Below, in pieces: positions 53,608 through 61,955 of a stretch of DNA of 64,000 nucleotides. The notes below the pieces were generated by a model. It did no database searches. It saw only the letters and a list, made by a program, of their open reading frames with translations, and had not been told where the DNA came from. The first letter of the stretch is position 1; each line of letters begins with the position of its first letter. The DNA lies in the IMG/VR virus record IMGVR_UViG_3300027804_000001, positions 1-64,000 of that record, one strand, 5' to 3'. Both the position numbers and the translations under genes were made by a program. Source of the DNA: a virus. Taxonomy: Duplodnaviria > Caudoviricetes.

Positions 53608-53979
53608 TTAGTAGAGAATTTGCTTATTTTTTTCAAATATTTTGTATCCAAAGTCAATTCTTGTTTTAACTTGAGGTATTGAGAATTTTACAATTTCTTC
53701 TATCTCAATTATTAATTCGTTGTTTTCTCCTTTTAATTTTGAATTATCGTCGAAATATATATAACGATTTTTATCAAAATCTTTTCTCATTTTTTCATAT
53801 AAAACTTCATAATTTATTAATTCACAAACCATTTTTTCCATATGTAATAAATGAGGTGAAAGTTTTTTTAAAAGAAACGAGTTGTCAACTTTTTGTAGGT
53901 AGGCAAGTAAAACATATTGTTTTTGTTCAAAGTCAATCGGTGATTCCATATACCATGTAAGTGCTAGTTGATTCAACAT
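53608..53979 (-). CDS. Hypothetical protein
   Basis: 123-aa ORF, TATTTATA at 53993-54000. Confidence 0.7.
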   Translation of the reverse strand: MLNQLALTWYMESPIDFEQKQYVLLAYLQKVDNSFLLKKLSPHLLHMEKMVCELINYEVLYEKMRKDFDKNRYIYFDDNSKLKGENNELIIEIEEIVKFSIPQVKTRIDFGYKIFEKNKQILY

Positions 53980-54012
53980 TAAAATACTTTTTTATAAATA
54001 TTTTTAAATTTT

Positions 54013-54044
54013 CTTGTATTTTCATATACTTATTGTTATCTTTG
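54013..54044 (+). promoter_or_regulatory. Promoter region of tRNA block 1: host-type CTTG-N20-TATCTTTG plus CATATACTTAT motif
   Basis: TATCTTTG at 54037-54044; CATATACTTAT at 54023-54033, identical to 55680-55690. Confidence 0.7.
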
Positions 54045-54069
54045 TTAGAGATTTAAATAAAAAAGTTCG

Positions 54070-54174
54070 ATGAAACAAGTAAAACATATTATGCACTCGT
54101 TTACAATCTGTTCAAAATGGGCGGATGAGCGTGTTATGCTTTTGTCTCGAACTGAAGATATTAATAAGGGCTAA
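54070..54174 (+). CDS. Leader peptide 1 (34 aa: MKQVKHIMHSFTICSKWADERVMLLSRTEDINKG)
   Basis: ATG 54070 to TAA 54174; sits between promoter and terminator upstream of tRNA block 1. Confidence 0.8.
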   Translation: MKQVKHIMHSFTICSKWADERVMLLSRTEDINKG

Positions 54175-54233
54175 ATAAAGATTGGCTTTAAATATTCAGA
54201 ACCTCGGGACAAAATCTCGGGGTTTTTTGTTTT
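54140..54233 (+). promoter_or_regulatory. Attenuator 1: antiterminator (54140-54162 with 54191-54214) competing with terminator (54200-54224 plus U tract)
   Basis: TTTTGTCTCGA pairs with TCGGGACAAAA and CTGAA..TATT with AATATTCAG; terminator AACCTCGGGA-CAAAA-TCTCGGGGTT-TTTTGTTTTT. Confidence 0.8.
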
Positions 54234-54234
54234 T

Positions 54235-54307
54235 GGGCCGGATGTCAATGGCAGACCACCTGATTTGCAATCAGAGTGAATGGGTTCGATTCCCAACGCG
54301 TCCACCA
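54235..54307 (+). tRNA. tRNA-Ala(TGC), acceptor stem with two mismatches
   Basis: Loop TTTGCAA, G3-U70, TTCGATT, encoded CCA. Confidence 0.75.
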
Positions 54308-54368
54308 ACCCCCGAGTTTAGGAGCTGGTATCTCCGTTTCTCGATATAACTGAAAAACTACCACACAT

Positions 54369-54441
54369 TCTTAGGTAGCTCAATGGTGAGAGCATCCGTC
54401 TGATACGCGGAAGGTTGATGGTTCGAGTCCATCTCTAAGAA
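54369..54441 (+). tRNA. tRNA-Ile(GAT)
   Basis: TCCGT-CTGATAC-GCGGA; full cloverleaf. Confidence 0.95.
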
Positions 54442-54446
54442 CAATA

Positions 54447-54519
54447 GGAGATGAAGCTAACTTAGTAGAAGCGAAGGACTGAAAATCCTTAGGAGTTGGA
54501 GCGTAACCAACTATCTCCA
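54447..54519 (+). tRNA. tRNA-Phe(GAA) with non-canonical T-loop
   Basis: AAGGA-CTGAAAA-TCCTT; T arm GTTGG-AGCGTAA-CCAAC. Confidence 0.85.
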
Positions 54520-54524
54520 CAATT

Positions 54525-54598
54525 GACCTCTTAGCTCAGTTGGTTAGAGCACCTCACTTTTAATGAGGGAGTCCGCAGTTCGAGTCTGCGAGGGGTCA
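54525..54598 (+). tRNA. tRNA-Lys(TTT)
   Basis: CCTCA-CTTTTAA-TGAGG; full cloverleaf. Confidence 0.97.
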
Positions 54599-54604
54599 CA
54601 ATAC

Positions 54605-54675
54605 ATGGGTGTGGTGCAATGGTAGCATTCCGGTCTCCAAAACCGTCGATGGGAGTTCGAATCTCTCCACCCGTG
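54605..54675 (+). tRNA. tRNA-Trp(CCA)
   Basis: CCGGT-CTCCAAA-ACCGT; full cloverleaf. Confidence 0.95.
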
Positions 54676-54693
54676 CAAAAATTAAATAAATGT

Positions 54694-54764
54694 GGTCTCA
54701 TAGTTTAATGGAAAAACGTCTCGCTACGGACGAGATGATTGGGGTTCGAATCCCTGTGAGACCT
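54694..54764 (+). tRNA. tRNA-Arg(ACG)
   Basis: TCTCG-CTACGGA-CGAGA. Confidence 0.95.
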
Positions 54765-54796
54765 CTGTTCATTGTTCGAGAACAAAGAACAAATAA

Positions 54797-54867
54797 GTCA
54801 GGTTGGCCGAGTGGTTAGGCTGAGGTCTGCAAAACCTCCTACATTGGTTCGAATCCAATACTTGACT
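54797..54867 (+). tRNA. tRNA-Cys(GCA)
   Basis: GAGGT-CTGCAAA-ACCTC; U73. Confidence 0.96.
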
Positions 54868-54869
54868 CT

Positions 54870-54945
54870 GTGATAGATGTTCGTATGGTAGAACCCAAGA
54901 TTGTGGCTCTTGGATTAGCGGGTTCGAATCCCGTCTATCACCCCA
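54870..54945 (+). tRNA. tRNA-His(GTG), C73 but no encoded G-1
   Basis: CAAGA-TTGTGGC-TCTTG; encoded CCA; base -1 is T. Confidence 0.92.
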
Positions 54946-54946
54946 T

Positions 54947-55018
54947 TGTGGGGAGGTTAGGTAACCCGTTTGGTCTCATAAGCCAGATATTCAGGTTCGA
55001 TTCCTGGCCCCGCAACCA
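54947..55018 (+). tRNA. tRNA-Met(CAT), atypical (4-nt D-loop, U1-A72 paired, probably elongator)
   Basis: TTGGT-CTCATAA-GCCAG; D arm GGTT-AGGT-AACC; encoded CCA. Confidence 0.7.
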
Positions 55019-55036
55019 AAAAAAGATTAAAAATAT

Positions 55037-55067
55037 TTTGTGATTTCACAATTTATTCTTATCTTTG
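55037..55067 (+). promoter_or_regulatory. Internal Bacteroidota-type promoter upstream of tRNA-fMet
   Basis: TTTG (55037-55040) N19 TATCTTTG (55060-55067). Confidence 0.75.
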
Positions 55068-55077
55068 TAAAACAAAT

Positions 55078-55149
55078 CGCGAGATAGAGCAGCGGTAGCT
55101 CGGAAGGCTCATAACCTTTAGGTCGGGGGTTCGATTCCCTCTCTCGCAA
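55078..55149 (+). tRNA. Initiator tRNA-fMet(CAT)
   Basis: C1:A72 mismatch; GAAGG-CTCATAA-CCTTT. Confidence 0.9.
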
Positions 55150-55233
55150 CACTTGAGACTAACTCAACGAGGCTTTTGTCAACCAGAGCATGACTTGGAT
55201 GGTGCAGATTGAAGGTGGGTTAGAATCATTTTT

Positions 55234-55307
55234 GGTTTCTTGGTGTAGTGGCCTAACATGCCTCCCTGTCACGGAGGAGACCACGGGTTCGAATCCCGTA
55301 GGAACCG
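55234..55307 (+). tRNA. tRNA-Asp(GTC)
   Basis: CCTCC-CTGTCAC-GGAGG; G73. Confidence 0.97.
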
Positions 55308-55310
55308 CAA

Positions 55311-55472
55311 GTTGTTTCATACACTTAACACGCTTAGTAACAAAGCAAGGTACATAGAGTTACATAGAAGCATGGAGTGATTACCCGACGCTACATTCGG
55401 ACTACAAATGTGATTAGGTTCAGTCGTTGTAGAGAAAGAGATGTTAAGAGTAAACTTGCAAGTTGAAACAAC
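55311..55472 (+). ncRNA. Candidate 162-nt structured RNA between tRNA-Asp and tRNA-Ser
   Basis: Perfect terminal stem GTTGTTTCA/TGAAACAAC and inner CTTAACA/TGTTAAG; no ORF. Confidence 0.5.
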
Positions 55473-55476
55473 GATT

Positions 55477-55564
55477 GGAGAGATGGCAGAGTTGGCCGAT
55501 TGCGTCAGTCTTGAAAACTGAAGAACGGGAAACTGTTCCGTGGGTTCGAATCCTACTCTCTCCG
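55477..55564 (+). tRNA. tRNA-Ser(TGA)
   Basis: TCAGT-CTTGAAA-ACTGA; long variable arm; G73. Confidence 0.97.
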
Positions 55565-55569
55565 CACTT

Positions 55570-55641
55570 GCTCGGTTCGACTAGTGGTCAGGTCGCGTCC
55601 CTTTCACGGACGTAGCACGGGTTCGAATCCCGTACCGAGTA
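55570..55641 (+). tRNA. tRNA-Glu(TTC)
   Basis: CGTCC-CTTTCAC-GGACG. Confidence 0.97.
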
Positions 55642-55699
55642 CAAAAATTTTTTTATTATTTAAACTTTTTATATATTCACATATACTTATAAAACAGAG

Positions 55700-55804
55700 A
55701 TGAAGAATTTGAATAACATATCAACACTTAGTACGAGACCAGTTAATGGTAATGGGTATGGTGTGCAACCGTTATGTTACTCAAGTTCGGATTTCAAAAT
55801 GTAA
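55700..55804 (+). CDS. Leader peptide 2 (34 aa: MKNLNNISTLSTRPVNGNGYGVQPLCYSSSDFKM)
   Basis: ATG 55700 to TAA 55804; CATATACTTAT 9 nt upstream; terminator 23 nt downstream. Confidence 0.8.
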   Translation: MKNLNNISTLSTRPVNGNGYGVQPLCYSSSDFKM

Positions 55805-55866
55805 GATTCAATCTACCTAAGATATCGAAACCCGAACTCAACAAAAAAGTTCGGGTTTTTTGTTTT
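55784..55866 (+). promoter_or_regulatory. Attenuator 2: antiterminator (55784-55795 with 55827-55838) competing with terminator (55828-55858 plus U tract)
   Basis: AGTTCGGATTTC pairs 11/12 with GAAACCCGAACT; terminator AAACCCGAACT-N9-AGTTCGGGTTT-TTTGTTTT. Confidence 0.82.
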
Positions 55867-55895
55867 AGTAATTTTTTATTCTTATATTTTATTAG

Positions 55896-55907
55896 GTTCT
55901 TTGACAT
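55896..55907 (+). promoter_or_regulatory. boxA-like antitermination motif GTTCTTTGACAT; related copies at 59150 and 61548
   Basis: Resembles rrn boxA (TGCTCTTTAACA); copies precede tRNA block 2, the GOLLD-like RNA and tmRNA. Confidence 0.55.
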
Positions 55908-55920
55908 TGTGGGAAAATTT

Positions 55921-56005
55921 GCCGAGGTGATGGAATGGTAGACATGACAGACTTAAAATCTGTTGGGACGAAAGTCCCGTGCGGGTTCGACTCCCGCTCT
56001 CGGTA
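55921..56005 (+). tRNA. tRNA-Leu(TAA)
   Basis: ACAGA-CTTAAAA-TCTGT; long variable arm. Confidence 0.97.
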
Positions 56006-56044
56006 CAAACACTATCGTTCTTTGGAAATAAAGGAGAAAATAAT

Positions 56045-56290
56045 ATGGATATATTATCATTTATTTTAGGAATGTCCGTTGTGGTGGTTATCGCGGTTGC
56101 GGTAGTTGCTGTAATGGCCTTTGTTAAGGTGAGAAAACATAACAAAGAAATTGATGAAATTCATCAAATAATCGGAAGAGAAATTGATGTACAAAACAGA
56201 GAGCGTGAAACAATTGTTCAAGACATATATCGAACACTAGATTCACGACTTGATAAACTTGAAAGTAAATTAAACAGCCGTAAGGCATAA
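56045..56290 (+). CDS. Single-TM coiled-coil membrane protein embedded in the tRNA array
   Basis: Start moved to ATG 56045 (MDILSFILGM...); AAGGAG at 56031-56036. Confidence 0.8.
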   Translation: MDILSFILGMSVVVVIAVAVVAVMAFVKVRKHNKEIDEIHQIIGREIDVQNRERETIVQDIYRTLDSRLDKLESKLNSRKA

Positions 56291-56329
56291 CAATTAAATA
56301 AAAAACTTTCAAAGACGATAGTGTTAATT

Positions 56330-56404
56330 GGTCTGATAGTTAAACGGATATAACAACTCTCTTCTAAAGAGTAATTCGTGGTTCGATTCCACGTCGGACT
56401 ACCA
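56330..56404 (+). tRNA. tRNA-Arg(TCT)
   Basis: ACTCT-CTTCTAA-AGAGT; encoded CCA. Confidence 0.95.
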
Positions 56405-56406
56405 TT

Positions 56407-56480
56407 CGGGATTTAGTACAGTCCGGTAGTATGCTTGGTTTGGGACCAAGAGGTCGTAGGTTCGAATCCTGCAATCCCGA
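56407..56480 (+). tRNA. tRNA-Pro(TGG)
   Basis: CTTGG-TTTGGGA-CCAAG. Confidence 0.97.
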
Positions 56481-56485
56481 CACTT

Positions 56486-56557
56486 GTCTTCTTAGCTCAG
56501 CGGTAGAGCATCTCGCTGTTAACGAGAGGGTCCAAGGTTCGAAACCTTGAGAGGACG
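56486..56557 (+). tRNA. tRNA-Asn(GTT)
   Basis: TCTCG-CTGTTAA-CGAGA; G73. Confidence 0.97.
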
Positions 56558-56563
56558 CAAATT

Positions 56564-56647
56564 GGCCGAGTGGTGGAATGGTAGACACGTTGGTCTTAGG
56601 AACCAATGTTGAAAAACGTGAGAGTTCGAATCTCTCCTTGGTCACCA
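56564..56647 (+). tRNA. tRNA-Leu(TAG)
   Basis: TTGGT-CTTAGGA-ACCAA; encoded CCA. Confidence 0.97.
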
Positions 56648-56653
56648 ATAAAA

Positions 56654-56734
56654 TGGGGTATCGCATAGTGGCAATTGCGGGGGACTGTAAATCCCCTCTC
56701 ATTGAGTTCGGCGGTTCGAGTCCGTCTACCCCAA
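56654..56734 (+). tRNA. tRNA-Tyr(GTA)
   Basis: GGGGA-CTGTAAA-TCCCC; long variable arm. Confidence 0.96.
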
Positions 56735-56740
56735 CAAATT

Positions 56741-56814
56741 GGACTCGTAGCTCAGTTGGTCAGAGCAGGGCACTCATAATGCCAAGGTCGGGGGATCGTG
56801 ACCCTCCGGGTCCA
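56741..56814 (+). tRNA. tRNA-Ile2(CAT, lysidine type) probable; non-canonical T-loop
   Basis: AGAGCAGGGCA-CTCATAA-TGCC resembles Ile2 scaffolds; T-loop ATCGTGA; the only ATA codon of the two leaders is in this block's leader. Confidence 0.75.
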
Positions 56815-56818
56815 CAAT

Positions 56819-56893
56819 AGAAGATTAGCTCAGAGGAAGAGCATTTGGTTTACATCCAAAGGGTCGGGATTTCAAAATTCTCATCTTCTACCA
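56819..56893 (+). tRNA. tRNA-Val(TAC), weak T arm
   Basis: TTTGG-TTTACAT-CCAAA; T-loop TTCAAAA; encoded CCA. Confidence 0.88.
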
Positions 56894-56919
56894 AACTCGG
56901 AAGTAAAAACGAGACAAAT

Positions 56920-56995
56920 GCGGAAGTAGCTCATTAGGTAGAGCGTCTGCTTGCCAAGCAGAAGGTGGCCAGTTCGAGCCTGGTCTTCCGCTCCA
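56920..56995 (+). tRNA. tRNA-Gly(GCC)
   Basis: TCTGC-TTGCCAA-GCAGA; U73, encoded CCA. Confidence 0.97.
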
Positions 56996-56998
56996 CAA

Positions 56999-57072
56999 GC
57001 TTCCTTAGCTCAGCAGGCCAGAGCACGTGATTTGTAATCTCGGGGTCGTCAGTTCGATTCTGACAGGAAGCT
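56999..57072 (+). tRNA. tRNA-Thr(TGT)
   Basis: CGTGA-TTTGTAA-TCTCG (U:U in stem). Confidence 0.93.
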
Positions 57073-57130
57073 CAAAAGGACTTTAATGGTTGAAGTACAA
57101 AACTGACGTAGGTTAGTCCCACCTACAAAT

Positions 57131-57202
57131 GCAGATGTCGTATAATGGCTATTACTCCATCCTTCCAAGTTGGAGACGAAGGTTCGATTCCTTTCATCTG
57201 CT
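57131..57202 (+). tRNA. tRNA-Gly(TCC)
   Basis: CCATC-CTTCCAA-GTTGG (U:U in stem); U73. Confidence 0.95.
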
Positions 57203-57265
57203 CAATCATCAAAGAGACCGCTAAATCGAGTTAGTGAAAATCTACATTCTCAATGATGATTATTC

Positions 57266-57336
57266 TGTCCTTTAGTATAACGGTAGTACAGGTGGTTTTG
57301 GTCCATCTAGTTGGGGTTCGAATCCCTGAGGGACAA
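57266..57336 (+). tRNA. tRNA-Gln(TTG)
   Basis: GGTGG-TTTTGGT-CCATC; U1-A72. Confidence 0.95.
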
Positions 57337-57337
57337 C

Positions 57338-57577
57338 ATGGAATTAATAGCATACATAGGTGGAATATTACTTACAATTTGTGGTATACCTGAAGTCATT
57401 AGAACAATTAAAGATAAACGATGTCACTTAGGGTGGCCATTTTTATTATTATGGTTTTTTGGTGAGGTGTTTATGTTAATATATTCGGTTGATTTAAAAA
57501 GTTATCCATTAATAATGAATTATCTTTTTAATACCATTATTGTTGGGGTTATGTTATATTATAAAATAAAAAAATAA
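57338..57577 (+). CDS. PQ-loop / SemiSWEET-like three-TM protein
   Basis: IGGILLTICGIPEVIRTIK...; three hydrophobic helices; start moved to ATG 57338. Confidence 0.75.
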   Translation: MELIAYIGGILLTICGIPEVIRTIKDKRCHLGWPFLLLWFFGEVFMLIYSVDLKSYPLIMNYLFNTIIVGVMLYYKIKK

Positions 57578-57590
57578 AATAAAATAAACT

Positions 57591-57890
57591 ATGTGGTTAT
57601 ATGTCTTAGTATTTTTCTTTCAAGTTTTATTCAATGTTTTTAAAACTATGGAGATAAAATACACTTATGAGAATAAAGTTAAACAACTTGTGTTTAATTC
57701 GGTATGGATAAATCTTGTATCATTAGGTTCAACTTATTTTGCACTTGATAGATTATTTGCCAAAGATTGGACGGTTATTATTGTTTATATAAGTGGTAGT
57801 GTTTTTGGTAAATGGTGGGCAATGACACACTTTGTAAATTATGAAAATAAATTTTACGAATTTTTAAATAAAAGAAAAACAAAAAAATAA
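57591..57890 (+). CDS. Small three-TM membrane protein
   Basis: Hydrophobic helices, YISGSVFG. Confidence 0.7.
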   Translation: MWLYVLVFFFQVLFNVFKTMEIKYTYENKVKQLVFNSVWINLVSLGSTYFALDRLFAKDWTVIIVYISGSVFGKWWAMTHFVNYENKFYEFLNKRKTKK

Positions 57891-57893
57891 AAT

Positions 57894-58127
57894 ATGTATT
57901 TAACATTTCACATTATCTGTATCATTTATTGTATGTATCAACTAATAAAAAAATACAATAAATTATCAAATCCCGGTATGATTGGTGTATCTCCTGGTTT
58001 AGAGACCATTATGGTCATTGTATTAGCTCCTGCACTTGCAATTGTTGATGTATCATTAACATGGATTCGTTGGTATAAAGAAGCCGAAGAAGCTAGAAGA
58101 AGAAATGACGAAAGAAAAATTTTTTAG
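57894..58127 (+). CDS. Small two-TM membrane protein
   Basis: 77-aa ORF; its stop overlaps the first base of tRNA-Ser(GCT). Confidence 0.7.
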   Translation: MYLTFHIICIIYCMYQLIKKYNKLSNPGMIGVSPGLETIMVIVLAPALAIVDVSLTWIRWYKEAEEARRRNDERKIF

Positions 58128-58212
58128 GAGAGTTACCCAAGTTGGTGAAGGGGGCAGTTTGCTAAACTGTTAGGGTGTTAAAGCCGCGAGGGTTCGAGCC
58201 CCTCACTCTCCG
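58127..58212 (+). tRNA. tRNA-Ser(GCT)
   Basis: GCAGT-TTGCTAA-ACTGT; long variable arm; G73. Confidence 0.96.
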
Positions 58213-58217
58213 CAAAT

Positions 58218-58387
58218 TGTAGTGTGTTGAAAAACGATTGACACGCGTGTCAATCTGGCAGACAAGCCCTCCTGTCTCGGGGGTGTGGATAACGAAATAG
58301 ATTGGTAATATGGGGTAGACCACCATCCTGCAGGAATGTGTTATCAATTGAATCGCCTCGTGGATGGTTCGAATCCTCCCACTACAG
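58218..58387 (+). tRNA. 170-nt tRNA-Asp(GTC)-like RNA with D-loop hairpin insertion and 78-nt variable region
   Basis: Acceptor TGTAGTG/CACTACA + G73; anticodon arm CCCTC-CTGTCTC-GGGGG; T-loop TTCGAAT. Confidence 0.7.
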
Positions 58388-58415
58388 CTAAAATAATTAT
58401 AGTAAATGAAATGAA

Positions 58416-59097: not shown

Positions 59098-59128
59098 TTT
59101 GTTTTTAAATAAACTCTTCGTATATTTG
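59098..59128 (+). promoter_or_regulatory. Bacteroidota-type promoter for the giant ncRNA
   Basis: TTTG (59098-59101) N19 TATATTTG (59121-59128). Confidence 0.75.
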
Positions 59129-59167
59129 TAAAACAATCGGAAACGATAAGTTCTTTGACTAAAAATA

Positions 59168-59977
59168 TTGGCCGCCTATGGTCATTAAATAAACTGTGAA
59201 AGCAGTATAAAGTGAATCTGAATTAGTTATTCAGGTTTGCGGTTTCAGAAATGGAACTTGAGTAGGCAAGCGGGATATCATCGAACCTTAAGTACTGAGG
59301 GTGACACTTTAGGGAAAGTGGTTTGGTGACCAAGCGATACCGGTCGTTTGGTTGAGGTGGGAACACCAATAAGAATAACTCGTAGAATTATTGTAAAAAG
59401 TATGGTCTCCAACTATACAATTGCGTGATTCAATACAATGGGAATCTTAAAACCGAAAGGTATGGTGATGTACAGGTGGTGCTGTTATTATCCTTGATTT
59501 GAATCTACCAAGATTCTTATCTCGAAGGGGTCCAAAAGTATGGAGGTAGGGATATCTCAGAGGGTAGTTTAGTATCGTGTTGTTCAAAAGATGACATGTC
59601 TGGTGACGAGCCACTACCTTCCAAATCGGTAACTAAAATCATTTTGTTAATTTTGGTTTAACAAACTTAAATACAAAAGGAAAAGTGCTCGTCAGTCGTT
59701 AGAGACAGGTGACTACATAGTCGTGAGGGGTTCACGGCCACAAAGGGTCCCAAGCCCAATGTGAATTGTAAGAAAGTTCTCTAGTCCCGCAAGGATTAAT
59801 CGGGGTGGCAACCTCGAAGAGTAATGAGTAAGATGAGAGTATCTAATGACTTAAGGATTGGTTAATCTAATTGACCGTCACTGGTTGGTACAGTTCAAAA
59901 GACTGTGGATAAGAAAGGAAACAATAATCTTTCTAAAGTCAACTACTAAAACTTGTAATCTCAGAGTTTTGTTTTTT
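59168..59977 (+). ncRNA. GOLLD-like giant structured ncRNA (~800 nt; ends approximate)
   Basis: ORF-free, GC-richer tract with many short GNRA-type hairpins (CCGAAAGG, CCCGCAAGG), own promoter and boxA, next to a tRNA array; size and context match GOLLD. No covariance-model search run. Confidence 0.7.
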
Positions 59978-61526: not shown

Positions 61527-61561
61527 AATATTTATATCTTTACATTAGTTCTTTAAAATAT

Positions 61562-61955
61562 GGGGGTGTCTGGTATTGATTGGCGTTAATATGATAGGTG
61601 GGCACGTAGTCGGATGTCATCTACGACTTTAATCAACGGTGGTAAAATTCAAACGGCAACGTTTACAACAAAATGGAAGCTTGCGGATTAATTGCAACTT
61701 CTAACGTAGCAGTAGCCTAAGGCGAGACTACATTCGGGTCGGTTAGGACATTAACCTAGGAACAGAAGTCCAATATACGGGTCACAGGTCAGAGCTCGTT
61801 TAAAATAATTCTGAGACCAGGTTGTTTATAGGTTGGTTTCCCACATACATCAAACCTAATATTTCGGAACATTGAGAAACAATGTTGTAATAAACGTGTA
61901 GTCCATTTATGGTATTGCGAGCAAGACACGGGTTCGACTCCCGTCACCTCCACCA
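61562..61955 (+). ncRNA. ssrA: tmRNA; predicted tag (A)GNVYNKMEACGLIATSNVAVA at 61655-61720
   Basis: Acceptor GGGGGTG/CACCTCC-A-CCA with G3-U70; T arm ACGGG-TTCGACT-CCCGT; internal short reading frame ending in Ala. Confidence 0.93.

Follow-up and report, generated by a model that had tools for sequence, protein, structure and literature searches.

Leader-peptide attenuators and the phage locus

The enterobacterial trpL, hisL, thrL and ilvGMEDA leaders combine a short translated frame with an intrinsic terminator, and their RNA can adopt mutually exclusive 1:2, 2:3 and 3:4 pairings. The stop codon is placed so that a ribosome which finishes the leader masks segment 2, and the regulatory codons are cognate to what the operon supplies. 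These codons lie on segment 1, where they follow one another and specify one amino acid or a small number of them, and the genes they regulate encode enzymes. Read-through is also coupled to the state of tRNA or of translation in pheST/thrS-type synthetase control and in T-box leaders; the pheST leader senses Phe only, and T-box leaders are untranslated and bind uncharged tRNA directly. Another signal which acts on transcription, boxA, is used in the NusB/NusE-dependent antitermination of rrn operons; in E. coli, boxA elements recruit Nus factors.

The element described here precedes the second of two blocks of tRNA genes in a large, uncultured phage. It resembles the amino-acid operon leaders in the translated frame followed by a terminator, the three exclusive pairings, the placement of the stop codon and the relation of the codons to the downstream genes, and it resembles the synthetase and T-box leaders in the proposed coupling of read-through to tRNA and translation. 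It differs from the amino-acid operons in that the genes concerned are tRNA genes, that the leader has one or a few codons for each of 12–13 tRNAs, and that these codons are located between segments 1 and 2. It differs from T-box leaders in being translated, as far as the reading frame indicates, and from the pheST leader in being a pangram. Moreover, its setting, a Bacteroidota-type host with few Shine-Dalgarno sequences and a boxA after the terminator, is unlike that of the enterobacterial attenuators. We consider it likely that this element is a ribosome-mediated leader-peptide transcription attenuator, which gates read-through into the second tRNA block. No account of tRNA genes controlled by leader-peptide attenuation came out of a full-text search of the literature.

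The phage and its relatives

The window, which is the whole 64-kb stretch of DNA analysed, belongs to an AT-rich phage (32% G+C). ARAGORN finds 25 tRNA genes and a weak tRNA-Ala(UGC) (54235-54304), all on the + strand and within 54235-58213. The region 53900-58300 has zero megablast matches in INPHARED, and blastn against the same database returns tRNA-level matches only and no close cultured phage. The exact terminator string has no match in IMG/VR. The features of the locus are collected in Table 1.

Table 1. Positions of the leaders, the predicted RNA segments, the signals behind them and the RNA genes of the window
Feature	Position	Strand	Description
Leader 1	54070-54174		ORF of 34 codons, sequence unrelated to leader 2
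Leader -7 promoter box position	55672-55679	+	Located with alignment A1 and a regex survey
11-mer	55680-55690	+	CATATACTTAT; second copy at leader 1, 54023-54033
Leader ORF 2	55700-55804	+	ATG at 55700, TAA at 55802-55804; 34 codons, MKNLNNISTLSTRPVNGNGYGVQPLCYSSSDFKM
Putative sensor			Codons 2-28 of leader ORF 2
Segment 1	55705-55712	+	GAATTTGA, ORF nt 6-13; 5' strand of helix 1:2 (RNAalifold)
Segment 2	55781-55795	+	TCAAGTTC (55781-55788), partner of segment 1; AGTTCGGATTTC (55784-55795), partner of segment 3
Segment 3	55827-55838	+	GAAACCCGAACT; 5' strand of the terminator and partner of segment 2
Intrinsic terminator	55828-55866	+	11-bp stem, AAACCCGAACT (55828-55838) with AGTTCGGGTTT (55848-55858); 9-nt loop, then TTTTTTGTTTT
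Bypass promoter-like element	55859-55890	+	TTTG-N20-TATATTTT, between terminator and tRNA-Leu; TATATTTT at 55883-55890
boxA element	55896-55912	+	17-mer GTTCTTTGACATTGTGG; boxA-like GTTCTTTGACAT at 55896-55907
Block 2, putatively controlled	55921-58213	+	13 tRNA genes with small ORFs between: Leu(UAA), Arg(UCU), Pro, Asn, Leu(UAG), Tyr, CAU (Ile2-like), Val, Gly(GCC), Thr, Gly(UCC), Gln, Ser(GCU)
GOLLD RNA	59560-59967		
tmRNA	61562-61955		

A neighbouring 153-aa protein was used as a query to collect 80 related loci from IMG/VR, many of which are on contigs of 200-320 kb; the compared loci and contigs are labelled with L-numbers (L005, L029, etc.). The sequencing runs which contain this DNA are freshwater metagenomes. 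By blastn, the leader 2 stretch has homologues in about 22 loci, with 68-79% identity, and leader 1 in about 20. Sixteen distinct diverged copies of the leader 2 stretch form the alignment A1. The relatives are not phylogenetically independent, so that tests carried out phage by phage repeat one signal. Independent support comes from the tRNAs that have moved between blocks and from the unrelated leaders of distant phages (see below).

A Shine-Dalgarno-like word is found in just 7 of the 47 long genes, and the phage promoters take the Bacteroidota form TTG-N19-21-TAnnTTTG. These two features point to a member of the Bacteroidota as the most likely host.

The order of the tRNA genes in block 2 is the same in the relatives. 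Small ORFs with hydrophobic stretches (81, 88, 99 and 77 aa) occur inside the array, at 56045-56290 and 57311-58127, and the first of them (81 aa) is preceded by AAGGAG, a strong Shine-Dalgarno sequence of a kind seldom seen in this phage. In two relatives, an Rfam freshwater-1 motif lies in block 2 soon after tRNA-Leu(UAA) (L033:7153-7214 and L047:6122-6184). Downstream of tRNA-Ser(GCU), ARAGORN calls a tRNA with a CUA anticodon (amber, suppressor-like) in L047, L032, L042, L015, L023 and L031, and none in the window; the stretch of the window that follows this tRNA-Ser (58214-58410) contains a T-arm-like GGTTCGAATCC and G+C-rich hairpins, with no tRNA call. Further upstream, the 168-nt gap between tRNA-Asp and tRNA-Ser(UGA) (55309-55476) has no tRNA or Rfam call. 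Outside the tRNA genes, no other stretch is covered as well by the four metatranscriptome runs, whose contigs reach a depth of 50-56 here. One metatranscriptome contig, 100% identical, extends over 55122-55447. This gap is a candidate for an unannotated small RNA.

The leader ORF and its upstream region

Comparison of the aligned copies indicates that the leader 2 frame is under coding selection, because it is open over 33-36 codons in all 16 distinct relatives, every indel within it is a multiple of three (alignment A1), and the third codon positions are the most variable and have the highest entropy, which is the periodicity of coding sequences. The ATG is invariant in the aligned copies. 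Over the span of the leader, the relatives have 0 stop codons in the ORF frame versus 55 and 59 in the other frames. The ORF is presumably translated. The peptide belongs to no Pfam family, and a comparison with PHROGs gives only noise (E>0.02).

The conservation of nucleotides inside the ORF is strong, including at TGGTAATGGG and GTTCGG, and the RNA has internal helices. Both observations would fit an untranslated structured RNA, be it a riboswitch or a protein- or tRNA-binding leader of the T-box kind, whose open frame is a by-product. Such a reading is highly improbable: it is at odds with the multiple-of-three indels, the distribution of stop codons and the variable third positions. In addition, neither leader matches an Rfam family in 53950-56050, at the gathering score or even at E<=5, and the T-box model is also unmatched there. 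Finally, the codons match the tRNAs by decoding rules, and not by the pairing of an anticodon to a single specifier.

At the position of the leader 2 -7 box, the relatives have TATATTTG or TATCTTTG, and the window has the degenerate TATATTCA; a sigma-70 scan also gives TTTAAA-N17-TATACT at 55659-55687. The sequence-only reading had noted that the same 11-mer stands upstream of both leaders. It is indeed there, it occurs exactly twice in the 64 kb, and its core ATACTTAT is near-invariant at both leaders among the relatives. Its location is not the same: it lies 20 nt before the ATG at leader 2 and 47 nt before it at leader 1, on opposite sides of the TAnnTTTG box, and thus occupies a different place in the two promoters. 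The shared 11-mer was rejected as a general promoter element, the 8-mer core being present in 6 copies on the two strands of the window, which is no enrichment. It appears to be associated with the leader promoter.

Metatranscriptome contigs, from four runs, are sparse in this region, and neither 5' nor 3' ends could be read from them. The terminator is crossed by a single contig of low depth (55744-55891), which may result from DNA carry-over.

The RNA switch

Leader 2 has the complete layout of a classical attenuator, with the 1:2, 2:3 and 3:4 pairings, according to the alignment and the predicted folds. The 2:3 and 3:4 pairings of the architecture first proposed are borne out, and segment 1 had been overlooked. 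RNAalifold finds two consensus helices, the terminator and an 8-bp helix between nt 6-13 and nt 82-89 of the ORF. The latter, helix 1:2, joins codons 2-5 to codons 28-30 (55705-55712 with 55781-55788). Three of its pairs are doubly compensated (U-A/A-U 8:7, A-U/G-C 9:7 and 6:6), and it is part of the MFE structure when no ribosome is modelled. Its 3' strand runs into an invariant GTTCGG, which is a copy of the 3' strand of the terminator. The terminator stem, a perfect 11 bp as originally described, is kept in 16 of the 16 copies, and its loop-closing pair is compensated (T-A/A-T).

Codons 29-32 had been seen to pair with the 5' strand of the terminator. This 2:3 antiterminator helix (55784-55795 with 55827-55838) does form 11 of 12 possible base pairs in the window, with a dG of -13.9 and p = 0.01 compared to shuffled ORFs. 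The duplex is just 6-7 bp long in the relatives L007, L014 and L015, and in several relatives it is not better than the shuffled controls (p = 0.07-0.16). The argument against chance is its conservation in the relatives, which outweighs the shuffle p. Its core, GTTCGG/CCGAAC, does not vary, and covariation is seen at the pair next to it. The base that precedes GTTCGG changes in concert in segments 1 to 4: five sequences have T-A-T-A, five have A-T-A-T and one has a wobble version. In 14 of 16 sequences, this base is able to pair in the 2:3 form. The Ser codon within GTTCGG, TCG, represents 5% of the Ser codons in the phage genes, and in L029 the hexamer is kept but read in another frame, as Val-Arg. 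The retention of this motif across frames and the use of an uncommon codon indicate that the constraint is on the RNA and not on the peptide.

The stop codon of leader 2 is 7 nt past segment 2 and 23 nt (55805-55827) before the terminator; the corresponding distance from stop to stem is 25 nt in leader 1, and the similarity pointed out earlier therefore holds. In all copies, the stop codon is 7-13 nt past segment 2 and 23-32 nt before the terminator. Counted from the first base of GTTCGG, its distance is 17-20 nt, and CCCGAAC follows it by 24-32 nt. In all settings, the best partner of the terminator 5' strand within the ORF lies 5-25 nt before the stop codon.

To model the effect of a ribosome, a footprint of 27 nt was masked and the transcript was folded as it would stand immediately before the emergence of segment 4. 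For a P site at codons 1-12 or 22-25, the MFE model contains the 11-bp 2:3 helix. This helix does not form without a ribosome, helix 1:2 being present instead, nor with the P site at codons 26-35, where segment 2 is covered. With a single ribosome at codons 13-21, helix 1:2 can re-form. Sensing at these codons would need either steric exclusion or a second ribosome, trailing the first from the start site nearby.

Codons of the leaders and tRNAs behind them

Each tRNA of the window was counted with block 1 if it lies behind leader 1 and with block 2 if it lies behind leader 2, and the codons it reads were deduced from standard wobble rules. Codons 2-28 of leader 2 include a cognate codon for each of the 12 non-CAU species of block 2 (12/12). 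Only 0.16% of equally long windows taken from the genes of this phage reach this coverage (P = 0.0016). The CAU tRNA resembles ileX-type sequences and is a putative tRNA-Ile2, which would read a conserved ATA codon. Similarly, codons 2-24 of leader 1 cover 11/11 block 1 species, a result matched by 0 of 14,065 windows, whose maximum is 10.

Each leader matches its own block. Codons 2-26 of leader 2 comprise 21 that are read by block 2 versus 3 by block 1, and codons 2-26 of leader 1 comprise 17 that are read by block 1 versus 6 by block 2 (Fisher p = 2.5e-5). For both leaders together, the ratio of own-block to other-block sensor codons is 38 to 9, and 0 of 5000 random partitions do as well. 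The own-block fractions have P = 0.002 (leader 2) and 0.035 (leader 1) when compared to sliding windows in the phage genes. Random partitions of the tRNAs into two blocks match as well in 0-1 of 5000 cases in 14 of the 15 phages, and in 16 of 5000 in L014.

Comparisons between relatives show that the leader codons co-evolve with the tRNA sets of their blocks. In L029, where the Asp and Glu tRNAs have moved behind leader 2, the sensor of this leader has gained codons for both (two for Glu, one for Asp), and leader 1 has lost all of its own. In L019, compared to L005, the Thr tRNA has moved to block 1; leader 1 has gained one Thr codon and leader 2 has lost two. The Val tRNA has also moved between blocks, with no clear change in Val codons. 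The anatomy of the element, its conservation and covariation, and the match and co-evolution of codons and tRNAs are established.

AGA and ATA were considered as rare codons, and this idea was rejected: both are common in the phage genes, where AGA accounts for 363 of 476 Arg codons and ATA for 36% of Ile codons.

Signals between the terminator and the tRNA genes

A weak bypass promoter behind the terminator had been mentioned as a caveat of the sequence-only reading. The case for it is stronger than stated, since this element matches the consensus TTG-N18-22-TAnnTTTG, with the box TATATTTG, in 10 of 19 relatives. It has decayed in several others, and the copy in the window is degenerate relative to the consensus. 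Such an element would allow block 2 to be transcribed without passing the attenuator. In the window's lineage, part of the transcription of block 2 probably bypasses the attenuator, and control may be partial. No promoter is found behind the terminator in L029, L021, L053, L055 and L059.

Block 1 contains a consensus promoter of its own, TTTG-N19-TATCTTTG (55037-55067), at a distance of 11 nt from the initiator-like tRNA-Met that follows it (55078). The distal genes of this block may thus also be transcribed independently of the attenuator.

There is no terminator between tRNA-Glu (55642) and the terminator of leader 2, and the latter is strong, with its 11 bp and its T tract. It could therefore be that the terminator just ends block 1, that the hairpin in the ORF affects the translation or the stability of the leader mRNA, and that read-through is not regulated; the bypass promoter would then restart transcription. 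We find this scenario improbable. A terminator that acts on its own would not require the ORF to carry a copy of its 3' strand, at a fixed distance from the stop codon. Moreover, constitutive termination would silence the tRNAs of the five relatives named above, which have no other promoter behind the terminator.

The terminator is followed by a boxA-like motif, as had been reported, and the 17-mer that contains it is identical to the boxA of the 16S-23S spacer in Bacteroidota rRNA operons. It is found exactly in at least 120 genome contigs, mostly of Pedobacter, Mucilaginibacter, Chitinophagaceae and other Bacteroidota. In three annotated contigs (L086, L089 and L116), it comes after the spacer tRNAs and before the 23S gene. 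The rRNA operons of Pedobacter, Flavihumibacter and Niabella have this same 17-mer. Unlike the rrn boxA, that of the phage follows a putatively regulated terminator and precedes an array of tRNA genes. It is conserved in the phage relatives. The TTGACA of the motif was also considered as a -35 box and rejected, the -10 box falling inside tRNA-Leu and the motif being the rrn spacer boxA.

Two other sequences of the same kind are present in the window. The boxA-like GTTCTTTGACTA (59150) precedes the GOLLD RNA, behind a consensus promoter at 59098-59128 (region 59098-59161), and a variant boxA, GTTCTTTAAAAT (61548), precedes the tmRNA (region 61530-61559); in both cases the motif is paired with a promoter, as it is at leader 2. 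Antitermination signals of the host rRNA type thus appear to govern the large non-coding RNAs of this phage.

Leader 1 and leaders of distant phages

Leader 1 has the same four-segment design as leader 2, built from other sequences, and this geometry is found with compensatory changes in 16 diverged copies of each leader. The two ORFs had been described as unrelated in sequence and equal in length. The former is correct; the latter is true in the window and not in the relatives (29-34 codons for leader 1 and 30-36 for leader 2), and the equality is a coincidence of this genome. The earlier argument that the same geometry without sequence similarity reflects selection on mechanism is supported, since the geometry recurs in leaders 1 and 2, in 16 copies of each, and in distant phages.

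In six relatives (the far group and L042), the 2:3 helix of leader 1 consists of 9 G+C-rich base pairs, has a dG of -18 to -21 and is stronger than the terminator. In the window (54070-54233), segment 1 of leader 1 is GAAAC versus GAGAC in the relatives, which weakens helix 1:2. The MFE model of this copy forms the antiterminator even without a ribosome, which suggests that the window copy of leader 1 may default to read-through. An insertion of about 80 nt is present between the leader 1 terminator and tRNA-Ala in L010, L022, L014 and L015, and contains a long hairpin (for example GAGTTTTGGCTGG ... CTCAGCCAAAAGTG); it is absent from the window and from the other relatives.

In the distant loci L053, L055, L059, L062-64, L070, L072, L076, L080 and L057, the tRNA arrays are arranged differently. 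They are preceded by unrelated ORFs of 28-44 codons, each with a terminator behind it. The peptides encoded by these distant leaders are near-pangrams, with 19-20 types of amino acids (P 2e-3 to <1e-4), and the amino acid that is missing corresponds to a tRNA which is absent from the following block (Gly in L053, Thr in L059). The best partner of the terminator 5' strand within these ORFs is again located 5-25 nt before the stop codon. Most distant leaders have no promoter after the terminator.

These leaders also bear on the possibility that leader 2 is an independent small-gene cassette, which has its own promoter and terminator and encodes a functional 34-aa peptide, the tRNAs being driven from 55859-55890 and the 2:3 pairing being incidental. 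The succession of promoter, ORF and terminator is common in this genome, the N-terminus and a GNG-x-G core are conserved at the peptide level, and the consensus promoter of many relatives could drive the tRNA genes. Yet a cassette would leave unexplained the 12/12 and 11/11 coverage of the tRNAs, the way codons follow the tRNAs that move, and the four-way covariation. The retention of GTTCGG in a different frame, the lack of any Pfam or PHROG family for the peptide, and the same geometry around unrelated peptides in distant phages which have no bypass promoter also speak against it. We therefore give this explanation a small probability, and retain attenuation as the likely function of the leader.

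Proposed mechanism

The coupling to RNA polymerase, the direction of control and the share of transcription that is due to the bypass promoter are inferred from the sequences. In the proposed mechanism, transcripts would either start at the promoter of the leader or come in from tRNA block 1 upstream, which lacks its own terminator. The first 28 codons of the leader would sample every tRNA species encoded downstream. If decoding is fast, the ribosome would reach the stop codon and cover segment 2 (55781-55795), leaving segment 3 free; the 11-bp terminator would form and RNA polymerase would stop at 55860-55866. If decoding is slow, when a sampled tRNA is scarce or damaged, the ribosome would lag in the ORF and open helix 1:2. 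Segment 2 would then pair with segment 3 (11/12 bp) and block the terminator, and the polymerase would continue over the boxA element into the tRNA genes. In a leader that is not translated, helix 1:2 would form and the terminator would be used.

The net outcome would be a negative feedback on the supply of phage tRNA. Indeed, a leader whose codons match the downstream tRNAs, combined with an RNA switch, suggests that the phage probably makes more block 2 tRNAs when the codons are read slowly.

Implications for tRNA genes in large phages

If this mechanism is correct, tRNA genes would be expressed on demand, and the demand would be sensed by a translated test sentence with one codon per tRNA encoded behind it. 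Classical attenuation would then extend from the supply of amino acids to the supply of tRNA.

More tentatively, the pangram leaders may serve as a widespread, boxA-coupled surveillance of the host tRNA pool, in which a missing species stalls the ribosome and thereby turns on the block that replaces it. The triggers would be tRNAs which the host does not have, which disappear as the phage takes over, or which an anticodon-nuclease defence cleaves, and the circuit would be a self-tuning device for counter-defence and codon adaptation in large phages. The element also connects to recent work on anti-phage defences that target tRNAs.

The leader peptide predicts the downstream tRNAs, and this provides a handle for the annotation of tRNA arrays. 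The boxA signal of the host rRNA operons appears to be borrowed by the phage for its tRNA, GOLLD and tmRNA genes. The finding bears on why large phages carry near-complete sets of tRNAs, and on how these sets are controlled.
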